64,000 nt of DNA from an uncultured Bacillota bacterium (GTDB taxonomy: Bacteria; Bacillota; Limnochordia; Limnochordales; ZCTH02-B6): the NCBI GenBank assembly GCA_937916565.1, contig CALFSR010000021.1, positions 122-64,121 on the forward strand. Reading direction: 5' to 3'. A program made the translations under genes and the position numbers. Positions 2,337 through 63,570 of the stretch are shown piece after piece (within the stretch, counting starts at the first letter, position 1; each line of letters begins with the position of its first letter). The notes below the pieces were generated by a model, which saw nothing but the letters and a program-made list of their open reading frames with translations, had not been told where the DNA came from and did no database searches.

Positions 2337-3038
2337 TCAACCATCGGCCAGCATCTCCCGCTGCAGCTTGGTGAGGGCACGCTTTTCGATGCGGGAAACG
2401 TAGGAGCGGGAAATACCCAGAAGGCGTGAAATGTCCCGCTGCGTCTGGCGCACGCCGTCGAGCAGCCCGTAGCGCAGTTCCAGTATGCGGCGTTCCCGCC
2501 GCGTCAACTGCCGCATGGTCCTCCGCAGCTTTTCGTGCTCAAGCTGCCACTCGACCTTCTCGACGACCGCGTCGGGTTCCGTGCCCAAAATGTCCAGCAG
2601 GGTGATCTCGTTCCCTTCTTTGTCGGCGCCGATGGGATCGTACAGAAGCACCTCGCTGCGGGTCTTTTTGCTCGAACGCAGGTGCATGAGGATCTCGTTC
2701 TCGATGCAGCGGGCCGCGTAGGTGGCAAGGCGCGTCTTCTTGCCGCGGTCGAACGTGTTAATGGCTTTGATCAACCCGATGGTGCCGATGGAGATCAAGT
2801 CGTCGGCGTCTTCGCCGGTATTGTCGAACTTCTTGACGATGTGGGCGACAAGGCGCAGGTTTCGCTCGACGAGGATGTTGCGGGCCTCCCGGTCGCCTGA
2901 GCTCATGCGCTCCAGCAGTTCCGCCTCCTCTTCAGGGGAGAGGGGCTGGGGAAAGACGCTGTTGCTGATGTAGGCCGCGACCAGCATGAGACCGTCCACG
3001 AAGGACGCGATCAGGGCGACCAAGAGGGATACCAGCAC
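2337..3038 (-). CDS. sigK: sporulation sigma factor SigK (pro-sigma-K), uninterrupted
   Basis: Close match to B. subtilis SigK blocks: FPQPLS, NLRLVAHIVKKFxNTGEDAxDLISIGTIGLIK, DPIGxDKEGNEI, ISRSYVSRIEKRAL. It has a hydrophobic pro-sequence. SD GGAGG then GTG at 3038; the ORF-track start is 3071. Confidence 0.9.
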   Translation of the reverse strand: MLVSLLVALIASFVDGLMLVAAYISNSVFPQPLSPEEEAELLERMSSGDREARNILVERNLRLVAHIVKKFDNTGEDADDLISIGTIGLIKAINTFDRGKKTRLATYAARCIENEILMHLRSSKKTRSEVLLYDPIGADKEGNEITLLDILGTEPDAVVEKVEWQLEHEKLRRTMRQLTRRERRILELRYGLLDGVRQTQRDISRLLGISRSYVSRIEKRALTKLQREMLADG

Positions 3039-3086
3039 GGGGCACGCACCTCCTGCAGGATTCGGCGGCAAAGGCCGTGCTCCGCC

Positions 3087-3116
3087 AATCTATGAGGCGG
3101 GGGTGCGCCGCGTGCC
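3087..3116 (-). promoter_or_regulatory. candidate mother-cell (sigma-E/K type) promoter of sigK
   Basis: Minus strand GGCAC-N17-CATAGATT, about 45 nt upstream of the sigK start. It resembles AC-N17-CATAnnnTA. Confidence 0.3.
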
Positions 3117-5565: not shown

Positions 5566-8226
5566 TTAGGCCTTGGAGCGGGCCGCGGCCAACTGGGAGC
5601 GGACGATTTCCTTTGCCCGTTCCAAGGCTTCAGGCAACTTGGCGGGATTGCGGCCGCCGGCCCGGGCCATATGCGGCTGCCCGCCGCCGCCGCCCTCCAC
5701 CACCTTGGCTGCCTCCCGGACGATGTTGCCCGCGTGCACACCTTCGCTCACAAGGTCCCGGCTGGCCATGGCCACCAGGCTCACTTTGCCGTCCCGAGCC
5801 GTTGCCAGCACGACGGCGCCGCTGCCAAGCCGATCCCGCAGCAGATCGCCCAAAGCCACCAGGTCGTCGGGCTCGATGTCGCTGACGCCGGCCACCAGTA
5901 CCCGAGCGCTGCCCGCCGTCTCCGCCCGGGCGAGCAGCGTATCGACTCGCAGGGCAAGGAGCTGGCCCTTGAGCGCATCGCGCTCTTTCTCCAGCCGCCG
6001 CAGCTGCGAGAGCAGCCCGTCCAACTGCTGCGGGACCTGCGCCGGCGGCGTGCGCAATCTCTCGCTGACTTCCCGCACGAGGGCTTCCTGAGCGGCCACG
6101 TGCCGCCACGCCGCGTCTCCGGCCACCGCTTCGATGCGGCGCACGCCCGCCGCGACGCTGCCTTCCGAAACGATCTTAAAGAACCCGAGCTCGCCTGTGC
6201 GCTGCACATGGGTGCCGCCGCAGAGCTCAAGGCTGTAGTCGCCGACGCGCACGACCCGCACCTGCTCGCCGTACTTTTCCCCAAAGAGCGCCTTGGCACC
6301 GAGACGGCGGGCATCGGCCAAGCTCATCTCGGTCCAGGTGACGGGCACGTCGGCAACGACCAGCTGATTGACCCGCTTCTCGAGGGCCGCAAGCTGCTCC
6401 GAGGAAACCGGTTCAAAGTGCGTGAAATCAAATCGCAGGCGATCGGGCGCGACGAGAGACCCGGCTTGATTCGCGTGTTCGCCCAGGATCTCGCCCAAAG
6501 CGGCATGCAACAAGTGCGTGGCCGTGTGGTGGCGCTGGGTTGCGGCCCGAGTCTTGCCGTCCACCGTCGCCAGCACCCGCTCGCCCACCGCCAAGCGCCC
6601 GCTGGCAACCTTGCCCTTGTGCAGGATAAGTCCAGCCTCCGTGCGCTGGGCGTCCGCGACCTCGAGCTGGCCGTCGGCGCCGGTCAGCGTGCCGGTGTCG
6701 CCCACCTGACCGCCGCCCGCGGCATAAAACGGCGTCCGGTCCAGGACGACCTCCACTTCTTGCCCGCGCGTGACCGCCGGCACGCTTTCGCCGTTGACCA
6801 AAAGAGCCAGCACCCTTGCTTCGCTCTCGAGGCGGTCGTAGCCGAGGAACTCGGTGCGCGGCAGTTGGGCGAGGGCCGGAGCCGCCTGCGTATCGCGGCC
6901 CAAGTACCCTTCCTCGCCCCGGGCGGCCCGGGCCCGCTCACGCTGCTGCTCCATCGCGGCGGCGAAGCCCTCTTCGTCGACGGTGAAGCCCCGGTCGGCC
7001 GCGATCTCCCGGCTGAGCTCCAACGGGAACCCGTACGTATCGTAGAGACGGAATACGTCGACGCCCGGCAGCACCGTCCGGCCTTCGCGCCCTGCGGCCT
7101 CCATGACTTCTTCAAGGATGGCAAGGCCCTGGTCGAGCGTCTGGTGGAAGCGCTGCTCCTCTACCTCGATGACGCGGCGGATGTAAGACTCCCGCTGCAC
7201 GATGTCGGGATAGCCGCGGCGCATCTGCTGGACGACGGTGCGGGCGATTTCGCCGAGGAACGGTTCGGTGATGCCCAAAAGCCGCGCATGTCGCACAGCC
7301 CGGCGAAGAAGGCGCCGAAGCACATACCCGCGGCCCTCGTTGCCGGGCAGGACGCCGTCGTGAATCAGGAAAGTGACCGCGCGCATGTGGTCCGTGATTA
7401 CCCGCAGCGAAACGTCGGCCTGCGGGTCGGCCTTGTAGGCTACGCCCGCCCGGGCGGCTACATGCTCAAGGATCGGCCGGACGATGTCGATCTCGAAGTT
7501 GCTGCCGACCCCCTGCAGCAGGGCCGCGGCGCGCTCAAGCCCCATGCCGGTGTCGATGCCCTTGCGCTCCAGGGGGGTGTAGTTGCCGCTCTCGTCCTTG
7601 AAGAACTGGATGAACACGAGGTTCCAGATCTCCACGAACCGTTCGCACCGCTCGCACCCCGGGCGGCAGTCGGGATGCCCGCACCCCCGTTCCGGGCCGC
7701 GGTCCACGTGGATTTCGGAACACGGCCCGCACGGGCCGACGCCGATTTCCCAGAAGTTGTCGGCCTTGCCCATGCGCACGATCCGCTCCGGAGGAAGGCC
7801 GATTTCCTTTTCCCAGATGTCAGCGGCCTCATCGTCCTCCAGGTAGACGCTGGCCCAGAGGCGGTCGGGCGCAATACCCATGCGCTCGGTGACGAACTCC
7901 CACGCCCAGGCGATAGCTTCGCGCTTAAAGTAGTCGCCGAACGAGAAGTTGCCCAGCATCTCAAAGAATGTGTTGTGCCGATCGGTCAGGCCCACCTGGT
8001 CGATGTCGGGCGTGCGCACGCACCGCTGGCACGTCGTGATGCGCGGGTGCTCGGGCACCGCTTTGCCCAGGAAGTACGGCTTAAAGGGTACCATCCCGGC
8101 CGCGGTCAATAGGAGCGTCGGGTCCCCGTGGGGCACCAGCGACGCGCTGGGCAGCCGCTTGTGATTCTTCTCCTCAAAAAAGCGCAGAAACTCCTCGCGC
8201 AGTTGGTCCCCGCTCCACTGCCGCAT
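5566..8226 (-). CDS. alaS: alanine--tRNA ligase
   Basis: 886 aa, full-length AlaRS: FFEMLGNFSFGDYFK, editing-domain HTATHLLH, and C-terminal DHHA1. Confidence 0.97.
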   Translation of the reverse strand: MRQWSGDQLREEFLRFFEEKNHKRLPSASLVPHGDPTLLLTAAGMVPFKPYFLGKAVPEHPRITTCQRCVRTPDIDQVGLTDRHNTFFEMLGNFSFGDYFKREAIAWAWEFVTERMGIAPDRLWASVYLEDDEAADIWEKEIGLPPERIVRMGKADNFWEIGVGPCGPCSEIHVDRGPERGCGHPDCRPGCERCERFVEIWNLVFIQFFKDESGNYTPLERKGIDTGMGLERAAALLQGVGSNFEIDIVRPILEHVAARAGVAYKADPQADVSLRVITDHMRAVTFLIHDGVLPGNEGRGYVLRRLLRRAVRHARLLGITEPFLGEIARTVVQQMRRGYPDIVQRESYIRRVIEVEEQRFHQTLDQGLAILEEVMEAAGREGRTVLPGVDVFRLYDTYGFPLELSREIAADRGFTVDEEGFAAAMEQQRERARAARGEEGYLGRDTQAAPALAQLPRTEFLGYDRLESEARVLALLVNGESVPAVTRGQEVEVVLDRTPFYAAGGGQVGDTGTLTGADGQLEVADAQRTEAGLILHKGKVASGRLAVGERVLATVDGKTRAATQRHHTATHLLHAALGEILGEHANQAGSLVAPDRLRFDFTHFEPVSSEQLAALEKRVNQLVVADVPVTWTEMSLADARRLGAKALFGEKYGEQVRVVRVGDYSLELCGGTHVQRTGELGFFKIVSEGSVAAGVRRIEAVAGDAAWRHVAAQEALVREVSERLRTPPAQVPQQLDGLLSQLRRLEKERDALKGQLLALRVDTLLARAETAGSARVLVAGVSDIEPDDLVALGDLLRDRLGSGAVVLATARDGKVSLVAMASRDLVSEGVHAGNIVREAAKVVEGGGGGQPHMARAGGRNPAKLPEALERAKEIVRSQLAAARSKA

Positions 8227-11502: not shown

Positions 11503-11531
11503 ATCTTAGCACGGGTGTTTGCCCCCGTCAA
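11503..11531 (-). promoter_or_regulatory. sigma-A type promoter for cymR-iscS-mnmA
   Basis: Minus strand TTGACG, 17 nt, TG-C-TAAGAT. The -35 overlaps the rarA stop codon. Confidence 0.55.
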
Positions 11532-12889
11532 CCAGCCGGCGGCTCGTGGCTCGCGCTCGCCCGCCAGCGGCGAAGCCGCTCCCCGAGCACAGCCTCATAA
11601 CCGTGCTCGGACGGTTCATAGAAGCGCCGGCCAGCCACGTTGTCCGGCAAATACTGCTGGGGGACGTGGTGGCCCGGAAAGTCGTGCGGGTATAAGTAAC
11701 CCTGCCCGTGGCCCAGGCGCTGCGCGCCGGGATAGGATGCGTCCCGCAGGTGCACCGGCACCGGCTCCCATCGCTCGCCGCGCACCGCCTCCAAGGCCGC
11801 CCCGATGGCCTTATAGGCCGCGTTGCTCTTAGGCGCGGTGGCGATGTAGATGGCCGCCTGCGCCAGCGGGATCCGGCCTTCGGGCAATCCCACATGCTCA
11901 ACCGCCTGCGCAGCCGCGACGGCGACCAGCAGCGCCTGCGGGTCAGCGTTTCCGACGTCCTCGGCGGCATGAATGATAAGCCGCCGGGCGATCGTGCGCG
12001 GGTCTTCCCCGGCTTCCAGCATGCGGGCAAGCCAATAAACGGCGGCGTCGGGATCAGACCCCCGCATGCTCTTAATGAAAGCCGACAGCGTGTCGTAATG
12101 CTCGTCGCCGCTGCCGTCGTAGGCGACGTTGCGGGTCTGGAGCGCGGCGGCCGCGATGTCCGCCGTCACCCGAACCGGCTCTGGGCCTTGGGCACCGTCG
12201 CCTGCCGTCGCCTGGGCGACCTCGACAGCCAGCTCAAGCCCGTTGAGCACCGCTCGGGCGTCGCCGTTTCCCGCGCGGAGGAGAAGCGAGCGCGCCGCCG
12301 GTTCCAGTTCCACCGTCAAGCGGCCCAGTCCTCGCTCGGGGTCCGCCAGCGCCCGGTCGATAAGCTGCGAAAGGTGGTCGTCCGTTAAGGCTCGCAGCCT
12401 AAAGATCGGCGCACGGGACAACAGCGGCGCGTTGACGGAGAAGTACGGGTTTTGCGTGGTCGCACCGATGAGGATGATGGTGCCGTCCTCAACGGCAGGC
12501 AGCAGCGCATCCTGCTGGGAGCGGGTAAAGCGGTGGATCTCATCGATGAAGACGACGGTTCGCTGTCCGTGGTAGCGGAGGCGGTCCCGCGCCTCATCAA
12601 TGACCCGGCGCACGTCGGCGACGCCGGCGGTCACCGCGTTGAGAGGGCTGAAAGCTGCGCGGCTTTGCGCGGCGATGAGGCGAGCGAGGGTCGTCTTGCC
12701 GGATCCGGGCGGTCCAAACAGGATCATGGAGCGCAGCCGGTCCCGCTCCACCAGGACCCGCAAGGGCCGTCCAGGACCCAGGAGGTCCTCTTGGCCGAGC
12801 ACTTCTTCAAGGCTGCGCGGCCGCATTCGTTCCGCAAGCGGAGCGTTCGCCTTCCGGGCACTGTCTTCCGCCGCCGCAAACAGATCCAC
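11528..12889 (-). CDS. rarA: replication-associated recombination protein A (MgsA/RarA AAA+ ATPase)
   Basis: PLAERMRPRSLEEVLGQ, Walker A GPPGSGKTTLARLIA, and the MgsA C-terminal domain. SD GGAGGTG, 7 nt, then GTG at 12889. The ORF-track 551-aa version runs through a noncoding RNA region. Confidence 0.9.
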   Translation of the reverse strand: MDLFAAAEDSARKANAPLAERMRPRSLEEVLGQEDLLGPGRPLRVLVERDRLRSMILFGPPGSGKTTLARLIAAQSRAAFSPLNAVTAGVADVRRVIDEARDRLRYHGQRTVVFIDEIHRFTRSQQDALLPAVEDGTIILIGATTQNPYFSVNAPLLSRAPIFRLRALTDDHLSQLIDRALADPERGLGRLTVELEPAARSLLLRAGNGDARAVLNGLELAVEVAQATAGDGAQGPEPVRVTADIAAAALQTRNVAYDGSGDEHYDTLSAFIKSMRGSDPDAAVYWLARMLEAGEDPRTIARRLIIHAAEDVGNADPQALLVAVAAAQAVEHVGLPEGRIPLAQAAIYIATAPKSNAAYKAIGAALEAVRGERWEPVPVHLRDASYPGAQRLGHGQGYLYPHDFPGHHVPQQYLPDNVAGRRFYEPSEHGYEAVLGERLRRWRASASHEPPAG

Positions 12890-12916
12890 CTGGCCCCACC
12901 TCCGTGCTGCAGGCAT

Positions 12917-12941
12917 AAGAAAACGGGAGGTCGCCCTCCCG
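12917..12941 (-). terminator. rho-independent terminator ending the candidate ncRNA unit
   Basis: Minus strand CGGGAGG-GCGA-CCTCCCG followed by TTTTCTT. Confidence 0.65.
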
Positions 12942-12944
12942 CTT

Positions 12945-13147
12945 CGGCCAAATACCCCGCCGTGCCGCCATATCCGGCTGTTGGTGAACCTGCGCTCAGG
13001 CAGGTGGGTGTCCTCCTGGGCGCTTTTGGGCTTCCCCGCTGCCGGGGCATGCACGCCACGTCCAGAGCCGAACTCCCGGATGTGAAGGTGTTGGCTCACA
13101 ACACTGCCGGATTCGTCGCGAACACAGCAGGGCGTCGGTTCCCTGCC
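12945..13147 (-). ncRNA. ssrS: candidate 6S RNA (SsrS/BsrA-like)
   Basis: Own promoter and terminator. About 180-nt core (12955..13132) folds into a long irregular hairpin: CCCTGCTGTG pairs with CACGGCGGGG, and ATCCGGC/TGTTG/TGAGCC pair with GGTTCA/CAACA/GCCGGAT. There is a central unpaired region, an apical hairpin CCCCG-GCAG-CGGGG, and a 3'-bubble hairpin ACCTGC-CTGAGC-GCAGGT. Position between aspS and rarA matches B. subtilis bsrA as I recall it. Confidence 0.5.
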
Positions 13148-13153
13148 GAACCC

Positions 13154-13183
13154 ATCATACCACAGCCCCCTTGGCCGCGGCAA
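13154..13183 (-). promoter_or_regulatory. sigma-A type promoter of the candidate 6S RNA
   Basis: Minus strand TTGCCG, 18 nt, TG-G-TATGAT. Confidence 0.45.
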
Positions 13184-23839: not shown

Positions 23840-24169
23840 CTAGGCCGGCGGGGACGCGGCGGGCCGCTCGCCGTCCCGCTCGCTGCCTTCGAGGACGGGC
23901 CTTTCCTTCTCGAGTTGCTGCAGGCGCCGCTCCAGCTTGTGGATGTGGCCTTGCAGCTGGCGGATGCGCCACGAGGACTGGATCTGCCGGATGAGGCCGA
24001 TCAGGCCGGCCACCATCGCCCCGGCGGCCGCCGAGCCGACGACGACCACCACGAGCGACGTCTCCAGCTGCCAGCGGATTAGATTGACGGTGATGGGCGC
24101 AGCGTTCTGTACGGCAAAGACGGCCACGCCCAGGGCAAAGAGCAACGCGACAATGAGCAATAACTGCAC
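23840..24169 (-). CDS. LapA-domain (DUF1049) membrane protein, YrvD-like
   Basis: LLLIVALLFALGVAVFAVQNAAPITVNL...W, a second TM helix, then a coiled tail. Sits between the sec genes and recJ, as yrvD does. Start uncertain: GTG at 24169 with SD GGGGGGA, or 24211. Confidence 0.6.
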   Translation of the reverse strand: MQLLLIVALLFALGVAVFAVQNAAPITVNLIRWQLETSLVVVVVGSAAAGAMVAGLIGLIRQIQSSWRIRQLQGHIHKLERRLQQLEKERPVLEGSERDGERPAASPPA

Positions 24170-24244
24170 GGTTCTGGTCCCCCCGGCCGCGCGACTGGCA
24201 TCACGTGGCACTTCTCCCCCGGCGCGGCGGTTCCCTCCCCGGCT

Positions 24245-37754: not shown

Positions 37755-38966
37755 CTATCCGGGGCCGCCCGCCGGGCCGCCGATGGGCTCAAAGCGCCCC
37801 AGTTCCTGCCGGACTTCGATAGTTACCGCGGCCCGCACGACTCCGGCCGCCGTGTCGTCCCACACGGACACCTGCTCGTCCAAGACTTCCGCCGCCGGCG
37901 GGAGTTGCGCCAGCGCCTGTGTCCTGGCTTGTGCCAGCGCTTCCTCCCGGGCGGCAACGGGATCCGGCGGCGCCTGCGTGCGCCGCACCTCCCGGGCGAC
38001 GCGCCAGGTGACCGCAAGACCCGGGAACCAGCCTGGCGACCACTCCCACAGTTCCCACCGGGCATCGGCAAAGGGCGGCTCCGGACTGCCCATCTCGACC
38101 CGCCGCTCACCGACGCTGATCACCAGTTGCCGGTGCACCCGGCCCGTTTCTGTTTCGGACGAATGCGCCAGCGCCGCCTCGGCCAGACCACGGTACCAGG
38201 TACGCCCCTGAACGGTGCCCGCGGCCCGGACATACGGCAGCTCCCCTTGCGCGACCCGCTCTTCGTACTCGGCGCTGCCCGGCGGGAGCATGCCGCTGAT
38301 GAGCGGCTGTCCTTCCCGCACCGTCTCGCCGGGAGCGACCAGCGCCTCGCCCCGGACGAGGGCGATCCGTTCCACAACGCCGTCCCGGGACGCCACGATG
38401 TGGCCCGGCCGGCGGACGTCGTCGCCAAGCACCGTCCGTTCGACGACCCGCACCGTGGCGGCCGCTCCCCGGACGTCCACCGCGACCCACGCAAGACGGG
38501 GAATCGCCAAGTGGAGCCGCCGCTCGACGACGTCCCGCTGCACCCGCTCGCGCAGGACGCCCGGGCGCAAGCCCGCCTCCGCAGCGACGGCCAAGATCTC
38601 GTCGGCAGGGACCGTCCCCGCCCCATCCACCTGGACGAACCAGACGAACTGGGCGAGGACATACAAGAGCGCCGCGAACAGGGCACCGCCGGCGACAAAC
38701 GCCTGCCGGCGCCCGGCGCGGATCAGTACGAAGGGAAGCCCCTCCTTGCGCAGAATGGAGACGTCGACCCCGAGCCCCCTGGCCGCTCGCGCCAGCGCCG
38801 GAAAGTCGCCGGCGTGCACGCGCGCCACCAACAGCTCAGGCCCGGCCCTCTCCAACTGCCACAGGCCGATCCCTTGCGCGACCGCGCGGTTGACAAGCGC
38901 CTCCAGGCGCCCGCCCCGCGCTCTGATTATAACATATCCCCTGAATAGCGACGATAAGGCGCGCAA
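37755..38966 (-). CDS. yqfD: sporulation protein YqfD (stage IV)
   Basis: N-terminus MRALSSLFRGYVIIRARGG aligns with B. subtilis YqfD (MKNKWLSFFSGKVQLELTGRG). It has a central TM helix and follows yqfC. TTG start at 38966; the ORF-track extension overlaps yqfC. Confidence 0.85.
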   Translation of the reverse strand: MRALSSLFRGYVIIRARGGRLEALVNRAVAQGIGLWQLERAGPELLVARVHAGDFPALARAARGLGVDVSILRKEGLPFVLIRAGRRQAFVAGGALFAALLYVLAQFVWFVQVDGAGTVPADEILAVAAEAGLRPGVLRERVQRDVVERRLHLAIPRLAWVAVDVRGAAATVRVVERTVLGDDVRRPGHIVASRDGVVERIALVRGEALVAPGETVREGQPLISGMLPPGSAEYEERVAQGELPYVRAAGTVQGRTWYRGLAEAALAHSSETETGRVHRQLVISVGERRVEMGSPEPPFADARWELWEWSPGWFPGLAVTWRVAREVRRTQAPPDPVAAREEALAQARTQALAQLPPAAEVLDEQVSVWDDTAAGVVRAAVTIEVRQELGRFEPIGGPAGGPG

Positions 38967-38985
38967 CGGCGAGGCCGGGCCCTCC

Positions 38986-39264
38986 CTACCGGCGCAGCTG
39001 CACCTGGAGGATGCGCCCGTCCACCACCAGTTCCTGCGGCAAGATACTGCCGATGCGCAAGCGGCTGCCCGACACCACCAGCTCCCCCCGGGCCGTTCGC
39101 ACCCGCACCTCCCGGGGACTGTAGTGAAGCAGCCCCTGGTGATTTTCCACCAGCACCTGCACATCGCCGATGAGCGTCGTTTTGGGCAGGTTGAACGCGA
39201 TGTCGAGGGGCAGGTCCAGCGCCCGGACAAGCCGCCCGACCAGCGTGCCGCGCTCGGGTTCCAC
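38986..39264 (-). CDS. yqfC: sporulation protein YqfC
   Basis: LDLPLDIAFNLPKTTLIGDVQVLVENHQGLLHYS...ILPQELVVDGRI aligns with B. subtilis YqfC. SD GGGAGGGA then GTG. Confidence 0.85.
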   Translation of the reverse strand: MEPERGTLVGRLVRALDLPLDIAFNLPKTTLIGDVQVLVENHQGLLHYSPREVRVRTARGELVVSGSRLRIGSILPQELVVDGRILQVQLRR

Positions 39265-39305
39265 GGACGTCCCTCCCGGGACACCCTATGCGGGCGGCAG
39301 CTGCG

Positions 39306-45885: not shown

Positions 45886-46101
45886 CTATGAAGAGGCAGC
45901 GTCGTCCTTGGCGACCGCCGGGCGATCCGCCTTGACCGCCGGCTTGTCCTCGTCGTCATCAACGGCGGAGTTGGTAGCCTTCTTGAACTCCCGGATGCCT
46001 TTGCCGATCGCCTTGCCGACCTCAGGCAGCTTGCCGGGGCCAAAGATGATAAGTGCCAGGACGAGGATGATGACCAGCTCGGTGGCGCCGATCCCGAACA
46101 T
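45886..46101 (-). CDS. tatA: twin-arginine translocase subunit TatA/E
   Basis: [42 protein letters not shown]. 71 aa from the ATG at 46101 with SD GGAGAAGGGGGAG. The rest of the 194-aa track ORF is spurious. Confidence 0.9.
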
Positions 46102-46149: not shown

Positions 46150-46178
46150 AGTATATCGTACGCCGCCGTAAACGTAAA
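46150..46178 (-). promoter_or_regulatory. candidate sigma-A promoter for tatA
   Basis: Minus strand TTTACG, 17 nt, TATACT. Confidence 0.35.
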
Positions 46179-46218
46179 GAAGTGCGACCCGGACCCTTGT
46201 CCACGGGCCCGGGTCGCA
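46171..46218 (-). terminator. rho-independent terminator after the repeat-protein gene
   Basis: Minus strand TGCGACCCGGG...CCGGGTCGCA stem followed by CTTCTTTACGTTT. Confidence 0.6.
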
Positions 46219-46273: not shown

Positions 46274-46603
46274 TTAGCAGAACCTGTTCCTGACGGCGAT
46301 CGTCCGCAGGCCGTTCGCGAAGATCGTCCGGACCCGGATAGGGCTGACAAACACCCTCCGCACAAGCACCGGACGGACCGCGACCGTGCGCACGCACACC
46401 GGCCGGACGGCAACTGTCCGGACAAACGCGGTGCGCAGGAACACCGGCCGCACTGCGACCGTGCGCACAAACACCGGACGCACCGCCACCGTCCGCAGTG
46501 CGATCGTCCTCAGTGCGATGGGCTGCACCGCAATCGTCCGAACAAAGTTCGGGCAGACCGCGATAGTCCGGACCGCCACCGTCTTCACACCGTTGCAAGC
46601 CAT
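46274..46603 (-). CDS. orphan hyper-basic tandem pentapeptide-repeat protein (109 aa)
   Basis: SD AGAAGGAGGTG, 6 nt, then ATG at 46603. Product is MACNG, then 18 units of [VL]-[RKQCS]-[TPR]-[VIAN]-x, then [14 protein letters not shown]. 19 Arg and 1 Lys, no Asp or Glu. Flanked by its own promoter-like element and terminator. Confidence 0.6.
46319..46588 (-). repeat. coding tandem repeat, 15-nt unit with a 30-nt super-period
   Basis: CGN-ACN-GTN-GCN-GTN / CGN-CCG-GTG-TTY-GTG units are repeated with synonymous variation. They encode [10 protein letters not shown]. Confidence 0.8.
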
Positions 46604-46635
46604 GCTCGGCACCTCCTTCTCACTGGCTTCACTGC

Positions 46636-46665
46636 TACGGTATGTGGGCCCGTCCGGCCCCGTCC
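46636..46665 (-). promoter_or_regulatory. candidate sigma-K-type promoter of the repeat-protein gene
   Basis: Minus strand GGAC-N17-CATACCGTA, about 30 nt upstream of the SD. It fits AC-N17-CATAnnnTA. Confidence 0.3.
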
Positions 46666-46855
46666 TAGGAACCGGTTCGCATTTGCGCCCGCGGTGGGAC
46701 TAGGCCGCGGCCGTCCGCATAAGGGCCCGTGCGTGCGGCCGGCGTCGACGCTCCATCCATTCCCATTGTACTGGCGGCAGGGTTTGGGACGGCCCGTCCA
46801 GGATTCCTTGACCACTGCGGCATGCATTTGACGACTGAGGAGGAATCCACCGCTC

Positions 46856-47341
46856 GTGAGATCCCTTGCCAAAGCCAGACGGACGCTGCGGCCCAGGCTG
46901 GCGCTGCCTGTGAGCCTCGCCCTGTTGGCGGCGCTCGTGACGGGGTGCTTTGGGTCCCCCATCGGCGGGGGCGGCCTCAACAACGACCAGCGCTTTTCCC
47001 TGCAGGGGACGGTCGTCGACGCGGGTCCCGCCGCCGCCCCGGTGGCCGGGGCCATCGTCCAAGCAGCCGGCCACGAAACGGAGACTGGTCCAGACGGTGC
47101 GTTCAGCCTCGGGAACTTGCCCGTGCAAGGCCCCAGCATGCCCGTCACCGTGTCGGCGCCGGGCTACGAAACCGCCACGTTCCTTATCCAGCCAGTAGCC
47201 GGCGAAGTGCTGGTGCTTGACGTCATCTTGGCGCCTACCGGCGCCGGCGAGCCCGGCGACGGCGGAACGCCCGGGGACGGCGGCGACGAGCCCGGCAATG
47301 GCGGCGACCCCGGCGATGGCGGCAGCGGCGGCGAACCGTAA
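46856..47341 (+). CDS. lipoprotein with CarboxypepD_reg-like beta-sandwich domain and Gly/Asp/Pro-rich tail
   Basis: SD GAGGAGGAA then GTG. Signal peptide with lipobox LVTGC. Domain GTVVD...PVAGAIV...TGPDGAFSLGNLP...VSAPGYE. Ends at TAA 47339..47341. Confidence 0.7.
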   Translation: MRSLAKARRTLRPRLALPVSLALLAALVTGCFGSPIGGGGLNNDQRFSLQGTVVDAGPAAAPVAGAIVQAAGHETETGPDGAFSLGNLPVQGPSMPVTVSAPGYETATFLIQPVAGEVLVLDVILAPTGAGEPGDGGTPGDGGDEPGNGGDPGDGGSGGEP

Positions 47342-47437
47342 GACCCGGTCTATAGCGGCGTCGTCGAAGCGCGCATCCGGCTGGTCAACGCCTCGGCCGG
47401 CGCGTCCGTATCGACGGCCAGCGCTGGCCCAGCGGAC

Positions 47438-48925
47438 TTGCTGACCCGTCCGGTCGCCCGCCGGCCGCAGGCCGCGACGGTCGACGCCTCCGTCCCCGGG
47501 GAGTGGATTGTGCAGTTGAACGGCGACTACCCCGTCCAGGCGGTCAACACCACATGGGCGGCGGCAGGCGTGCAGATCGTCGAGCACCTCGCCGACAACT
47601 TCTACCTCGTGGCTGCGACCGGCGGCGCGTCCGACGCCGAAACAGAAGATAGGCTCGCGCGGCTGCCCAACGTGGTATCCGTGGAACCTAACCGGCCCGT
47701 GCACCCGGTGGCCGTCGCCTACAACCCCAACGACACGTACTTCGCCCGCCAGTGGGGCTTGACCATGGTCAGCGTGCCGCAGGCGTGGAACGTCACCAGG
47801 GGCAGCCGCAACGTCGTGGTGGCGGTGCTGGATACGGGCCTTCTTCCCAACCACCCCGACATCCAGGGAATCTCCATCGTCAATGGGCGCAACTTCGCCA
47901 GCGGCCAGTCCGCGACGAACTACACGGATGACGCCACGAACTTGAGCCACGGAACGATGGTGACCGGCATCATCGGGGCGATGACGAACAACGGCAGTGG
48001 AATGGCCGGCATCAACTGGTCGGTGTCCATCATGCCCGTGCGGGTCATGAGCTCCCGCTCGGGCGGAACGGTCGCGGCCGTCGGCCAGGGTATCCGGTGG
48101 GCGGTTGACAACGGCGCCCACATCATCAACATGAGTCTTGCGTGGGACGCGTCCTACAACGATACCTTCGTCAACCAGCAGATCGAGTACGCTGCGAGCC
48201 GCGGCGTCGTGCTGGTGGCCGGAGCAGGCAACGACAGCGGCCGGATCACCATGCCCGCCGCCCACCCCGACGTCATCGCAGTCGGGGCCGTGGACCGCAA
48301 CAAGCGGGTAGCCTGGTATTCCAACTACGGCCCACAGCTGGACGTCGTGGCGCCGGGCGGCGACACCCGCAGCGGGCAGGCGGGCGGCATCCTCAGCACG
48401 GACATCGTCAGCGGGCGGCTGGGCTATTCGTACCAGCAGGGAACGTCGTTCGCCTCCCCTCACGTCGCCGGCATTGCGGCTCTCATGTACAGCGCCGGGA
48501 TCACCGACGCCCAGGAGATTCGCGAACTGCTTCGCCATACGGCCGAAGACCTGGGCACGCCAGGGTTTGACAACTACTACGGCTACGGCCTGGTGAACGC
48601 GTACGCGGCCGTGACGCGGTCCGACCCCGTACGCGCCCAAGTCAGCGTGGCGGCGGAGGATGGCCGGGTGACCGGCCCCGCGCTCCCTCAGCGTATGGGA
48701 GGGCAGACCATAGCCAGGATCGAGGGCGTTGCGCCCGGCGCCCAAGCGGTGTTTGCGTGGATCGACACCGTTCCCGACGGAGTCTTGGGCGAAGGCGATT
48801 TCGCGGGCCTTGCCGCCGTTAACGTGCCCGCCGAGGGCACGGTCGCCGCGGACCTGGTCCTCGCGCTGTGGGAGACGCTGCCGAGCAACGACCGGGCGCG
48901 GCTTGACGCGCTCGTCAACCGGTGA
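47438..48925 (+). CDS. S8 (subtilisin-family) serine peptidase with I9-like propeptide
   Basis: Catalytic triad contexts VAVLDTG, HGTMVTGIIGA and GTSFASPHVAG. N-terminal propeptide-like WIVQLNGDY...VVSVEPNRPV. No signal peptide and no SD before the TTG at 47438; an alternative GTG is at 47510, after GGGGAG. Confidence 0.9.
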   Translation: MLTRPVARRPQAATVDASVPGEWIVQLNGDYPVQAVNTTWAAAGVQIVEHLADNFYLVAATGGASDAETEDRLARLPNVVSVEPNRPVHPVAVAYNPNDTYFARQWGLTMVSVPQAWNVTRGSRNVVVAVLDTGLLPNHPDIQGISIVNGRNFASGQSATNYTDDATNLSHGTMVTGIIGAMTNNGSGMAGINWSVSIMPVRVMSSRSGGTVAAVGQGIRWAVDNGAHIINMSLAWDASYNDTFVNQQIEYAASRGVVLVAGAGNDSGRITMPAAHPDVIAVGAVDRNKRVAWYSNYGPQLDVVAPGGDTRSGQAGGILSTDIVSGRLGYSYQQGTSFASPHVAGIAALMYSAGITDAQEIRELLRHTAEDLGTPGFDNYYGYGLVNAYAAVTRSDPVRAQVSVAAEDGRVTGPALPQRMGGQTIARIEGVAPGAQAVFAWIDTVPDGVLGEGDFAGLAAVNVPAEGTVAADLVLALWETLPSNDRARLDALVNR

Positions 48926-60440: not shown

Positions 60441-62012
60441 ATGTCAAGCTCCCGCTCGGTGGCCCGCAATGCGGGCGTCGTCATGCTCCTCATCCTCATC
60501 TCCCGCCTGTTGGGCTTCGTCCGCGAGCGGGCCATCGCCGACGTGTTTGGCCTCACCTGGGAAACCGACGCGTTCCGCGCCGCGTTCAACATCCCGGACC
60601 TCATGTACTTCCTCCTGGTCGGCGGGGCGATCAGCTCCGCGTTCATCCCCGTGTTCAGCACCTACCTCGCCCGGGGCCAAGAAGACGAAGCGTGGCGCAT
60701 GGCCTCCACGTTCATCACCTTCATCAGCGGCGGGCTCGTGCTCCTCACCGTTCTCGGCGTCGTCTTTTCGCCGTGGCTCGCACCGCTGGTCGCCCCCGGA
60801 TTCGGTGACCAGCAGATGGCGCTCCTCGTGGTGCTCATGCGGGCCATGTTCCCGGCGGTGCTCTTTACGGCCCTCGCCGGCGTCGGCATGGGCGTGCACA
60901 ACGCCTACCAGCGCTTTGCCGTGCCCCTGCTCGGCCCCATCTTCTACAACGTCGCCATCACCTTGGGCGCGTACCTGCTCGGCCCCGTCATGGGCATCAT
61001 GGGGATGGCCGCCGGCACGGTGGCGGGCGCGATCGGAAACTTCCTCATCCAGGCGCCCTTCGTGGCCCGCACGGCCTGCCGGTTTCCGTGGCGCATGGAT
61101 TGGCGGCACCCGGGGCTGCGCAAGGTCGGGCGGCTGATGGTTCCCACCATCATCGGGCTCTCCATCGTGCAGCTCAACACCATCATCCTGACCGCCCTGG
61201 CGTCGACGCTGGCGGAAGGCCACATTACGGCCCTGAATCTCGCGAACCGGCTCGTGCAGCTCCCCTTGGGCGTGTTCGGCATGGGAATGTCCATGGTCAT
61301 TTTCCCGGTGATGGCGCGCCTTGCGGCGCTCGGCGACATGCAGGAGTTCGGCCGCACGTTGAGTACGGGACTGCGAACGGTGCTCTTTGTGACGGTGCCG
61401 TCCGCGGCGGGGCTCGTCGCCTTGGGAGAACCCATCGTGAGGCTCCTGTTTGAGGTGGGGGCCTTTGGCCCCGACGACACCCGGACGACCGCCTACGCCC
61501 TTTGGTTTTTCTCTGCCGGCGTGTTCGCCCTCTCATCGGTGCAGGTGCTGACGCGGGCGTTTTATTCGCTCCAGGACACGGTAACGCCGGTCAAGATCGG
61601 GCTGCTCAGCGTGGTGACCAACACCGGCCTGAGCCTTGTCTTCCTGCGCTGGACCGCCCTTCAGCACGGCGGGCTCGCCTTGGCGTTTTCCGTTGCGGCG
61701 GTAGTGCAAATGCTCGCGCAGATCGCCGCGCTCCGCCCCAAGCTGGGCGGGCGGCTCGAGCTTAAGGCCGTGGCCGGAACCTTCGCTCGGTCGTGCTTGG
61801 CCGCGGCCGTCCTGTTTCCCGCTGCACGCTGGACCGGTACCGTAATCGGCGCCCACGTGGACCTGGTCCTCGTCCCGGGGCGGCTCCTGCAGGTCCTGGC
61901 AGGCGTTGCGGCGGGCGTCTTGGCCTACGGAGTCGTAGCGCTCCTTCTGCGCATGGAGGAGCTAGGGTTCGTCCTGTCCGCCCTCCGCCGCATGGTCCGC
62001 CGCTCATCCTAG
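60441..62012 (+). CDS. murJ: lipid II flippase MurJ (MviN)
   Basis: SRLLGFVRERAIADVFG N-terminal signature and a polytopic MOP-family profile. SD GGAGGA, 6 nt, then ATG at 60441. Confidence 0.9.
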   Translation: MSSSRSVARNAGVVMLLILISRLLGFVRERAIADVFGLTWETDAFRAAFNIPDLMYFLLVGGAISSAFIPVFSTYLARGQEDEAWRMASTFITFISGGLVLLTVLGVVFSPWLAPLVAPGFGDQQMALLVVLMRAMFPAVLFTALAGVGMGVHNAYQRFAVPLLGPIFYNVAITLGAYLLGPVMGIMGMAAGTVAGAIGNFLIQAPFVARTACRFPWRMDWRHPGLRKVGRLMVPTIIGLSIVQLNTIILTALASTLAEGHITALNLANRLVQLPLGVFGMGMSMVIFPVMARLAALGDMQEFGRTLSTGLRTVLFVTVPSAAGLVALGEPIVRLLFEVGAFGPDDTRTTAYALWFFSAGVFALSSVQVLTRAFYSLQDTVTPVKIGLLSVVTNTGLSLVFLRWTALQHGGLALAFSVAAVVQMLAQIAALRPKLGGRLELKAVAGTFARSCLAAAVLFPAARWTGTVIGAHVDLVLVPGRLLQVLAGVAAGVLAYGVVALLLRMEELGFVLSALRRMVRRSS

Positions 62013-63433
62013 CGAGCGTTGCTTGCCGCCACAAGCTCGGCCACGATTTCCGCCAGCACATCCGCCACCAGTTCGGCCGACCGTACGGCCTCCTCCAGAT
62101 GATTGTCGTAGGATCCGATCTCCACCAGGACGGCCCGGGGGTGCAGGTCTTGGTTGAGGCGGGAGTCGGGGCGCTCGATGACGCGCCGGAACATTCCCGG
62201 GTAACGAGCGCTGATGCGGGCCGCAAGCGCCTGGGCAAAGGCAAGGTTCGTTGGCCAGCCAGGGTGCATGGCGGTGTTGGTGCCGACAACGAGAGCAACC
62301 TGGGCAACCCGCTGCCCGGCGACGGTGGCCACCAAGCCCTCCGGGGCATCCCGGTGGATGTCCAGCACGACTTCGATTTGGGGGTTGCGCGCCAGCGCCC
62401 GCTGCACGGTGGCGCGGGATTCGATGTACGCCCGGGGATGGGACGGCCAGTCGTGGATGTCCACCTCATGGCACACCGGAATGCCGTACACGTCCGTCAA
62501 GCGGCGGCTCAACGCCCGGCCGACAGCCACGATCCCCGTCTCGGTCGTGTTCCATAGGTGGTAGGCGTCCGCTTGCGCCGGCGCGAACGATCCGGTCCGG
62601 TACGTCTCCGACGTGTGGGTGTGGTAGATGAGGACGCGGCATCCGTCACCCCATTGAACGGCCAACAAACGCTCCCGCCAATCCGGTGCGCTCGTCCCCC
62701 CGGAAGGCCGTGCAGGGTCGGACTGGGTCGAACCCAGGAGATCTTCCTGCGCGGAAGGAGCAGCCGCGGAGGGCGGAAGCCCCTGCGGCACACCGGCATC
62801 TCCGTCGCGGGCAAGCGGCGGGCGGACTCGCGGATCTTCGCCCGCGCCCTCATCGAGCGCCCCTGCGCCCTGAAAGCCCGGCCCGTCACCGGCCGGAGCG
62901 ACGATGACCGACGGGCGTGGAAAGCTCGCGGTAGGCGGCGCAGCAGCAGCGGCGCGCTCGTGGTTGTACTCGCCCAAGACCGGGATACCCGCCGACAGCA
63001 GCGTCGCGGGATCGTGCAAGTCATAGCGGGTCAAAGCGTAGACGACCGCACCGACGTCTCCCCTCCAGCCGGCAGCGGGAGTATCCGCGGGCGACCTGTC
63101 GTCCCCCGCCCACACGCCCATGGGCAACCCCTGCCGCAAGGCGGCGCTGCCGAGCGCCCCGTCCACGTCGGCCAAGGCGGCGACCGCCGGGAGCCACGCG
63201 TTCACGGCGCCCGCCGCGCTCTCCCATGCCGCGGTGAACCACCGGATGGCGCGGACCTTCGCCTGTGGGTAGGTGCGATCGACGGCCACGGCGGCCGCCC
63301 CGATGGCGAGGAGCAGCCAGAAGGCAAGCAGGTAGCGCACCGGGCGCGTCAAGGATCGCCTGGCAAGGCGCGCGCAGCGCAACCGGTGGAGTCGGACGCG
63401 CCAGCGCAACCACGCCCAGAAACCCCTCCCCAC
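62009..63433 (-). CDS. spoIIP: stage II sporulation protein P
   Basis: C-terminal SpoIIP domain (IYHTHTSETY...DIHRD...LVEIGSYDN). N-terminal TM helix. SD AAGGAGGAGG, 6 nt, then GTG at 63433. Near lepA, as in B. subtilis. Confidence 0.85.
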   Translation of the reverse strand: MGRGFWAWLRWRVRLHRLRCARLARRSLTRPVRYLLAFWLLLAIGAAAVAVDRTYPQAKVRAIRWFTAAWESAAGAVNAWLPAVAALADVDGALGSAALRQGLPMGVWAGDDRSPADTPAAGWRGDVGAVVYALTRYDLHDPATLLSAGIPVLGEYNHERAAAAAPPTASFPRPSVIVAPAGDGPGFQGAGALDEGAGEDPRVRPPLARDGDAGVPQGLPPSAAAPSAQEDLLGSTQSDPARPSGGTSAPDWRERLLAVQWGDGCRVLIYHTHTSETYRTGSFAPAQADAYHLWNTTETGIVAVGRALSRRLTDVYGIPVCHEVDIHDWPSHPRAYIESRATVQRALARNPQIEVVLDIHRDAPEGLVATVAGQRVAQVALVVGTNTAMHPGWPTNLAFAQALAARISARYPGMFRRVIERPDSRLNQDLHPRAVLVEIGSYDNHLEEAVRSAELVADVLAEIVAELVAASNAR

Positions 63434-63570
63434 GGCACACCTCCTCCTTCGGCGGACGGACGCCGGTGTCACTGCCAGTCTATGGGACGACCCGGATGCG
63501 TTATGCCGCGGCCGGGACATATCGCGACACCGCCGCCCGTATGGATAGCGATCGGAGGGGGCGGGACACG

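Follow-up and report, generated by a model that had tools for sequence, protein, structure and literature searches.

An arginine-rich pentad-repeat protein family of Limnochordales-type Bacillota, with a mother-cell-type promoter box and a possible place in the spore envelope

Limnochordia are deep-branching, two-membraned, high-GC, endospore-forming Firmicutes, and to our knowledge the outer layers of their spores are almost entirely uncharacterised. Here, we studied a 64,000-nucleotide (nt) stretch of DNA from an uncultured member of this group (contig CALFSR010000021.1, positions 122 to 64,121, assembly GCA_937916565.1), which we refer to throughout as the window, and focused on a minus-strand gene encoding a 109-amino-acid (aa) protein built almost entirely of valine- and arginine-rich pentads. 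We describe the architecture of this protein and the evidence that it is genuinely encoded, its relatives and their genomic setting, the transcripts and upstream elements of its gene, and the functions that may be proposed for it, among which a structural part in the spore envelope is weighed against several alternatives.

The pentad-repeat gene and the protein that it encodes

The gene and the elements that accompany it are as follows.

46274 to 46603, minus strand: coding sequence of the 109-aa V/R pentad-repeat protein, with ATG at 46603 and a TAA stop at 46274 to 46276, taken from the open reading frame (ORF) listing and its translation, the frame being kept in orthologs
46610 to 46620, minus strand: Shine-Dalgarno site AGAAGGAGGTG, 6 nt before the ATG at 46603
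46636 to 46644, minus strand: -10-like box CATACCGTA of mother-cell sigma factor (sigma-E/sigma-K) type, conserved in orthologs as CATAnCGT
46662 to 46665, minus strand: -35-like GGAC, 17 nt upstream of the CATA and matching the GGCAC-N17-CATA of Limnochordia sigK
46665 to 46671, minus strand: upstream element TTCCTAG ([G/T]T[A/C]CTA[T/G/A]), always 20 nt upstream of the CATA and conserved in orthologs
46183 to 46218, minus strand: terminator hairpin with a 14-bp perfect stem and an 8-nt loop, followed by a weak T-tract CUUCUUUACGUUU (-38 kcal/mol, z = -4.3)

The protein reads MACNG, followed by 18 in-register, uninterrupted pentads (residues 6-95) and a 14-residue tail. The pentads follow the consensus [V/L]-R-[T/P]-[V/I]-[A/F], with V or L at position 1 in all 18, R or K at position 2 in 15, T or P at position 3 in 17, V or I at position 4 in 16, and A or F at position 5 in 15. 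Its 19 Arg and single Lys (18% of residues basic), together with a complete lack of Asp and Glu, confer a net charge of +20, and Ser occurs only once; V, I, A, F, L, and P nevertheless make up ~60% of residues, and the grand average of hydropathy (GRAVY) is +0.80. Cysteines stand at residues 3, 17, 70, and 109, the last of these being the final residue. Pairs of R or K residues spaced five apart number 12, a value matched in 0 of 20,000 shuffles, and the periodicity of R is significant across the family of relatives described below. At the DNA level, the repeats detected by Tandem Repeats Finder are just 80-81% identical, have a period of 30 or 45, and are confined to the central third of the gene, and the closest pair of 10-aa repeat units shows nonsynonymous and synonymous divergences (dN and dS) of 0.05 and 0.85, respectively. 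The repeat units have thus diverged at synonymous sites, and the periodicity is therefore held at the protein level rather than left by recent duplication.

The first start in the ORF listing is a GTG at 46612, but that codon sits within the Shine-Dalgarno site, and the equivalent of ATG 46603 is the start in all orthologs, where it reads M-[A/G/S]-C. The Shine-Dalgarno sequence itself (GAAGGAGGTG) is kept in the aligned orthologs, with GAGGGAGGTG in the contig L017 (L and P numbers denote the contigs and loci compared).

Because ORFs run long in several frames at the G+C content of the window (~67%), independent evidence of coding was sought. A spurious ORF, opened by chance across a DNA repeat at high GC content and yielding no functional protein, would be in keeping with the several frames that are open on both strands over the repeat region. 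Further, the third codon positions of one antisense frame coincide with those of the sense frame, so that neither the GC content of third positions nor dN/dS can assign the strand by itself. With that qualification, GC by codon position in the gene (0.63/0.52/0.83) resembles that of the nearby tatA, metallophosphoesterase, subtilase, and acyl-CoA dehydrogenase genes; the closer ortholog pairs have dN/dS values of 0.13-0.27, with amino-acid identity exceeding nucleotide identity; and the comparison of the window with its nearest relative (L044, 69% identical) gives a dN/dS of 0.24 with the pentad register retained. Within the species, six contigs differ at a single synonymous site, too little variation on which to base a test of selection. 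The strand was assigned as sense because the Shine-Dalgarno site and ATG, the M-x-C start, and the Cys-stop end are all conserved and because stops break the antisense frames in three lineages (L008, L014, and L025), the sense frame being kept in the orthologs. As the gene is also transcribed (see below), the spurious-ORF explanation is close to refuted, and the gene almost certainly encodes a real protein under selection, belonging to a new family restricted to this lineage. An initial annotation, made from the letters of the window, had described a stand-alone coding unit starting at ATG 46603 behind a near-consensus Shine-Dalgarno site, with 18 uninterrupted five-residue units kept periodic at the protein level, an Arg-rich composition free of acidic residues, and a Cys near either end, and each of these points was confirmed.

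Comparison with known families yielded little beyond resemblance in composition. A Pfam scan of the protein and 12 family members returned sub-threshold compositional matches alone (Keratin_B2, HC2, and PspC), of which the best, to Keratin_B2 (PF01500), had E = 0.03 and 14.7 bits against a cutoff of 28.7, while the match to HC2 (PF07382; E = 0.11, 13 bits against a cutoff of 40) was obtained with the window member only. Keratin-associated high-sulfur B2 proteins share a pentapeptide periodicity with Pro, Val, and Cys, but they are a eukaryotic Cys-rich family and the resemblance is limited to periodicity and composition. An NCBIfam scan found no family for the pentad-repeat protein, the family profile matched nothing among PDB sequences at E <= 10, and its sole true match among 1.84 billion representative proteins was the family's own cluster; nine other profile matches were rejected as homologs, these being unrelated pentad repeats (ALRSI, GLRTL, LALRD) inside long proteins.

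The classical pentapeptide-repeat proteins (PF00805/PF13599; A(D/N)LXX; Rfr) required closer comparison, as they too consist of uninterrupted tandem five-residue units with hydrophobic residues two positions apart. A divergent member of this superfamily of right-handed quadrilateral beta-helices would show the strict five-residue periodicity over ~100 residues that is seen here, and in one register V/I and V/L would fill the inward-facing i-2 and i positions. However, the consensus [V/L]R[T/P][V/I][A/F] has an invariant Arg and contains no D or N, position i-1 is never D/N, none of the 12 family members matches the pentapeptide-repeat Pfam models at E <= 1, and the PDB search was equally negative. 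AlphaFold2, which in our experience usually models Rfr folds confidently, gave a mean predicted local distance difference test (pLDDT) score of 30.0 with a 5-sequence alignment and 29.5 with a 12-sequence alignment, both alignments being shallow, and almost no secondary structure. We consider membership of the Rfr superfamily very improbable. The beta-solenoid suggested in the initial annotation is unsupported by these predictions, which modeled the monomer only. On the evidence of the searches, the family is undescribed and its sequence design unusual, in agreement with the earlier remark that the register does not follow A(D/N)LXX and that the family was not recognised.

Relatives, genomic setting, and transcripts

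Thirteen public metagenome contigs encode exactly this protein, and divergent relatives were found via word-seeded HMMER searches, a back-translated motif scan of GTDB genomes, and a scan of Joint Genome Institute (JGI) metagenomes for the succession of promoter, Shine-Dalgarno site, and start. The back-translated VAVRPVFVR pattern gave nine matches on genomes, one of them true (L017), and the promoter-to-start pattern gave three true matches out of six on metagenomes, including the new close relative L044. Altogether, about a dozen relatives are available, all within Limnochordales-type Bacillota; those that carry a name are listed as 'hypothetical protein' of Bacillota or Limnochordales metagenome-assembled genomes, and the SigK protein of the window itself shares 90-94% identity with SigK proteins assigned by annotation to Limnochordales. 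The protein had at first been called an orphan, which holds in that no described family includes it, but not in that these relatives exist and occupy the same genomic slot.

Family members are 93-119 aa long, with a computed isoelectric point (pI) of ~12, net charges of +14 to +20, GRAVY values of +0.3 to +0.8, and, in every case, a Cys at residue 3 and another at the last or penultimate residue. They fall into two clades. Clade A comprises the window protein, L044, and the fragment P0001, which start with MACNG or MSCNG and consist of nearly pure pentads. Clade B proteins start with M[G/S]CV[R/K]T and contain LRTIxV strands with NG or HG turns between them, a conserved SFSDSFLARVRVTVTP core, the signature AVRPVFVR, and a varying number of C-terminal VRPxxV units. 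No paralogs were found in the window or in the fetched loci.

The immediate neighbours in the window, given here for context only, are as follows.

45886 to 46083, minus strand: tatA (TatA_B_E, E = 2.9e-20), the downstream neighbour
46150 to 46178, minus strand: sigma-70-like promoter of tatA, TTTACG-17-TATACT
46856 to 48925, plus strand: S8 subtilase with a CarboxypepD_reg domain and a lipoprotein-like N-terminus, the divergent upstream neighbour

Orthologs occupy this slot between the S8 peptidase and tatA in at least eight Limnochordales lineages. In loci that are long enough, the gene order runs dnaK-dnaJ-prmA-rsmE, the divergent S8 subtilase with a BsuPI-like gene, the pentad-repeat gene, and tatA, and continues past tatA with metallophosphoesterase, acyl-CoA dehydrogenase, HIT, rpsU, nfeD, and floA. 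The gene called downstream is tatA in every long-enough locus, the exception on that side being the short P0023 contigs, whose downstream called gene has no TatA match. The flanking housekeeping genes are only ~67-72% identical at the DNA level between lineages, a divergence which indicates that the pentad-repeat gene has persisted over a substantial evolutionary distance. Separately, the S8 subtilase of the window contains an in-frame TAA at 47339 to 47341 (plus strand), where four independent metagenome contigs (L001, L002, L004, and L006) have GAA (Glu), and is thereby split into ORFs of 161 and 495 aa, reflecting either strain-specific pseudogenisation or sequencing error.

Two contigs bear on transcription. 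Contig L005 comes from IMG taxon (JGI) 3300003330, which Wu et al. 2016 list as a metatranscriptome from the inoculum of a thermophilic, switchgrass-adapted community (PMC5155067). Its first base lies 17 nt ahead of the ATG, at window position 46620, and 17 nt downstream of the CATA box. In contig L003 (SRR5251624), an Illumina adapter is fused 13 nt upstream of the ATG. From there, the two contigs run through tatA into the metallophosphoesterase gene, and both lack exactly 34 nt corresponding to the terminator hairpin (46185 to 46218), between two GGGTC direct repeats. This gap fits cDNA in which reverse transcriptase skipped the stable hairpin, the alternatives being assembly breakage at the stem and a genomic deletion variant, and the cDNA-like pattern of the two contigs places the 5' end of the transcript downstream of the CATA box. 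The same hairpin is where three contigs of DNA type (L002, L004, and L006) break off. The ends of the P0023 contigs were also considered as transcript starts and were rejected because they look like assembly break points. The pentad-repeat gene, a monocistronic unit, is thus transcribed, with some read-through. A terminator belonging to the gene itself had been proposed at the outset, and the strong 14-bp stem bears this out, though its T-tract is weak; GC-rich hairpins also lie past the stop in the orthologs L032 and L044, followed in L032 by a T-run.

A function tied to these neighbours can be envisaged, with the protein as a substrate or regulator of the S8 subtilase/BsuPI pair or as a cargo or partner of TatA, in the manner of phoD, which precedes tatAd in Bacillus subtilis. 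It would be in line with the order of S8 peptidase, repeat gene, and tatA, kept in nearly all lineages examined, and with the extension of the transcript-type contigs from the gene into tatA. Yet the entire dnaK-to-floA region is syntenic, which renders adjacency hardly informative, and tatA has a promoter-like site of its own, with the hairpin terminator lying between the two genes. The N-termini of the family carry no twin-arginine motif (S/T-R-R-x-F-L-K plus a hydrophobic region; a clade B example reads MGCVRTISLRP...), and in the window an intact repeat gene lies beside an S8 gene with a premature stop. Such a link to the neighbours therefore seems highly improbable to us.

A conserved mother-cell-type promoter box

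In B. subtilis, the sigma-K consensus is AC-N16-17-CATAnnnTA and that of sigma-E is ATA-N16-18-CATAcAnT. The string GGAC-N17-CATACCGTA spans 46636 to 46665 (minus strand) in the window, and a CATAnCGT box is found at the same position, with constant spacing to the Shine-Dalgarno site, in L008, L013, L014, L017, L025, L032, and L044. Across all lineages, the aligned upstream blocks read [G/T]T[A/C]CTA[T/G/A], then, exactly 20 nt on, CATAnCGT[A/G], followed by GAAGYC and the Shine-Dalgarno site. No sigma-70-type promoter was detected upstream of the pentad-repeat gene, and readings of this region as a sigma-G, sigma-F, sigma-H, sigma-A, or sigma-54 promoter were rejected since none fits the respective consensus sequence; for sigma-54, a TGGCAC-N4-TTGC string close to the S8 start in clade B falls one base short of the required spacing and is absent from the window.

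To interpret these blocks, we relied on the sporulation genes of the lineage itself, several of which lie in the window.

2337 to 3071, minus strand: intact, uninterrupted sigK, directly downstream of mltG/yceG, with its promoter at 3087 to 3113
37755 to 39284, minus strand: yqfD
38986 to 39264, minus strand: yqfC (YabP family), with CATAGGGT ~20 nt before its start
62009 to 63520, minus strand: spoIIP, with a sigma-E-like ATA-N17-CATAGACT upstream

The product of the window sigK scores 348.6 bits against an equivalog cutoff of 298.65, and this locus, together with four fetched Limnochordia sigK loci (L027-L030), served as a template for mother-cell promoters. The sigK promoter reads GGCAC-N17(16)-CATA[G/C]A[T/C/A]T in five of the five, an invariance that makes it usable as a lineage-specific template for such promoters. 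The GGAC-N17-CATACCGT of the pentad-repeat gene matches the layout of these promoters and also fits the B. subtilis sigma-K consensus. We regard the mother-cell-type -10 box as well supported as a conserved functional element, while sigma-K and sigma-E are indistinguishable as its partner on sequence alone. The [G/T]T[A/C]CTA element farther upstream could be the site of a regulator or an UP-like element.

Other features were observed in the course of this work. A TGGCACTCCGTTGC[C/T]GCAGTGG block, conserved in clade B, lies in the intergenic region beside the S8 start (L008, ~5820 to 5845; L013; L017, 6493 to 6520; L025, 6735 to 6760); it resembles a sigma-54 -24/-12 promoter but has GG-N9-GC, one base short, is not conserved in the window, and may instead be part of the subtilase leader. 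Elsewhere in the window, a full-length 6S (SsrS) RNA (12950 to 13136, minus strand; 102 bits) falls in the 5' part of the longest ORF of an MgsA-like ATPase gene (11528 to 13183), which implies that this ORF is over-extended and that the true start lies further downstream. A gene with a LapA domain (lipopolysaccharide assembly; 23840 to 24211, minus strand) adjoins recJ and is consistent with the reported diderm envelope of Limnochordia.

Possible functions of the repeat protein

The reading that we put forward is a structural one. The gene would be transcribed from a mother-cell-type sporulation promoter of the sigma-E or sigma-K class, and the protein would be made in quantity, as its near-perfect Shine-Dalgarno site and hairpin terminator suggest. 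It would then act as a self-associating structural part of the spore envelope, in a coat-like layer where beta-prone [V/L]R[T/P][V/I][A/F] pentads would pack against one another, the regularly spaced arginines would face anionic partners, and the terminal cysteines would cross-link subunits after lysis of the mother cell. A composition rich in V, I, T, and F, together with the NG/HG turns of clade B, points to beta-strand-rich self-association, and the invariance of Cys3 and of the terminal Cys in the family counts for a structural part. Spore coat proteins are, moreover, lineage-specific (bioRxiv 10.1101/2022.02.25.481979). The chances that the gene is part of the sporulation programme seem to us about even. 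A self-associating structural component of the spore envelope is a plausible functional reading that we would place somewhat short of even, and we would only tentatively call the protein, specifically, a coat or envelope structural protein.

The initial annotation had drawn an analogy with CotG, the product of a gene under sigma-K control in the mother cell. CotG is a Ser-rich, disordered spore coat protein that is heavily phosphorylated by CotH and encoded next to and divergently from cotH, and it is hydrophilic, with ~47% K/R/H and just 9% hydrophobic residues (PMC9765600). The likeness to CotG and CotG-like proteins lies in small size, short tandem repeats, large positive charge, a lack of homologs outside a narrow lineage, and an origin by repeat expansion. 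In contrast, the units of CotG are 6-7 residues long and those found here 5; the ~47% basic and 9% hydrophobic residues of the former stand against 18% and ~60% in the latter, which has a single Ser; and CotG is encoded next to cotH, whereas the gene for the pentad-repeat protein is flanked by an S8 peptidase gene and tatA. The window proteins that were scanned, representing part of the window ORFs, contained no CotH domain. By these comparisons the pentad-repeat protein may be CotG-like in action, but it falls outside the CotG family by the criteria that define it, so that the analogy stands for tandem repeats and net charge and fails for hydropathy, Ser content, and neighbours.

Several observations weigh against a place in the spore envelope. 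In the upstream region, the -35 AC of the window is replaced by GC or CC in L008, L013, L014, L017, L025, L032, and the closest relative L044, so that the -35 A of sigK promoters is absent in every ortholog; position 6 of the box is C rather than A; and the extra [G/T]T[A/C]CTA element, conserved just upstream of the -35 position, fits no known sigma-E or sigma-K consensus and is not known to match any other promoter or regulator consensus. The CATAnnnT motif occurs 20 times in the window, with 20.2 occurrences expected by chance. A longer, ortholog-derived pattern, KTMCT-N22-CATAnnnT, matches only the pentad-repeat gene and sigK in the window (0.03 expected), but in the sigK upstream regions of other Limnochordia its KTMCT part (GTACT in the window) is not conserved, and an element shared with the sigK promoter was accordingly dropped as evidence. 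The metatranscriptome derives from a mixed, compost-derived community, whose members may have been in any physiological state, and speaks to expression rather than to its timing. The vicinity contains no coat-assembly gene but housekeeping genes, which keep their order in any case, and the composition of the protein is sharply unlike that of CotG. Finally, AlphaFold2 found no structure for the protein, though a fold that depends on assembly would not appear in a monomer prediction. The sigma-K-like promoter of the initial annotation thus survives in part: the AC-N17-CATA of the window, the conservation of CATAnCGT, and a genome encoding SigK, SpoIIP, YqfC, and YqfD speak for it, while the AC is confined to the window and the choice between sigma-K and sigma-E is not separable.

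The same charge, on a protein with the same poor prediction of structure, could belong to a small basic binder of polyanions (nucleic acid, polyphosphate, or an anionic envelope polymer), active in sporulating cells or not and comparable with protamine, Hc2, or ribosomal-protein-like binders. All members have a net charge of +14 to +20 and a pI of ~12, the window protein has its weak compositional match to HC2, and the lack of an autonomous fold in AlphaFold2 would be expected if ordering needs a partner. Chlamydial Hc2, which is made late in a developmental cycle, and protamine-like condensers are similarly hyper-basic and built of short tandem repeats. Hc2, however, is Lys/Ala-rich and hydrophilic, whereas the pentad-repeat protein is Val/Arg-rich and hydrophobic, with positive GRAVY throughout the family and more than half of residues beta-branched or aromatic hydrophobics, unlike known condensers; the HC2 match lies far below threshold, and the conserved terminal cysteines would be left unexplained. 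We judge this alternative unlikely.

High Arg content together with high hydrophobicity also recalls membrane-active cationic beta-hairpin proteins, such as a toxin, an antimicrobial, or a factor in mother-cell lysis, in which Arg and V/I/F strands joined by NG/HG turns would resemble concatenated protegrin or tachyplesin hairpins. The LRTIxV-(N/H)G-LRTIxV repeats of clade B are indeed strand-turn-strand motifs, and conserved cysteines would suit such a protein. But no signal peptide was found in the pentad-repeat protein, and it has neither an immunity or antitoxin partner gene nor export genes; its gene is single-copy and has held a housekeeping-like position over long divergence; and a strong Shine-Dalgarno site would be costly on an intracellular membrane toxin. 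This makes a membrane-active role improbable.

Returning to the spore envelope, a more specific form of that reading would see in the protein a new building block of the envelope of diderm Limnochordia, in which pentads with Arg at every fifth residue form a cross-beta or solenoid lattice with arginine ladders, bound to an anionic partner and joined head to tail by disulfides. We know of no structural or sequence precedent for such an arginine-ladder lattice, and consider this form speculative and, on balance, unlikely.

Lineage-restricted low-complexity orphans are common, and if the protein is a general basic binder, the family would be one more lineage-restricted orphan family. As a conserved, transcribed, and apparently strongly translated gene with a mother-cell-type box, however, it gives a concrete candidate for a spore-envelope component restricted to this lineage. 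Its combination of a net charge of +20 with positive hydropathy, an Arg for every five residues, and a Cys at both ends may, further, make it a source of a new self-assembling repeat architecture.

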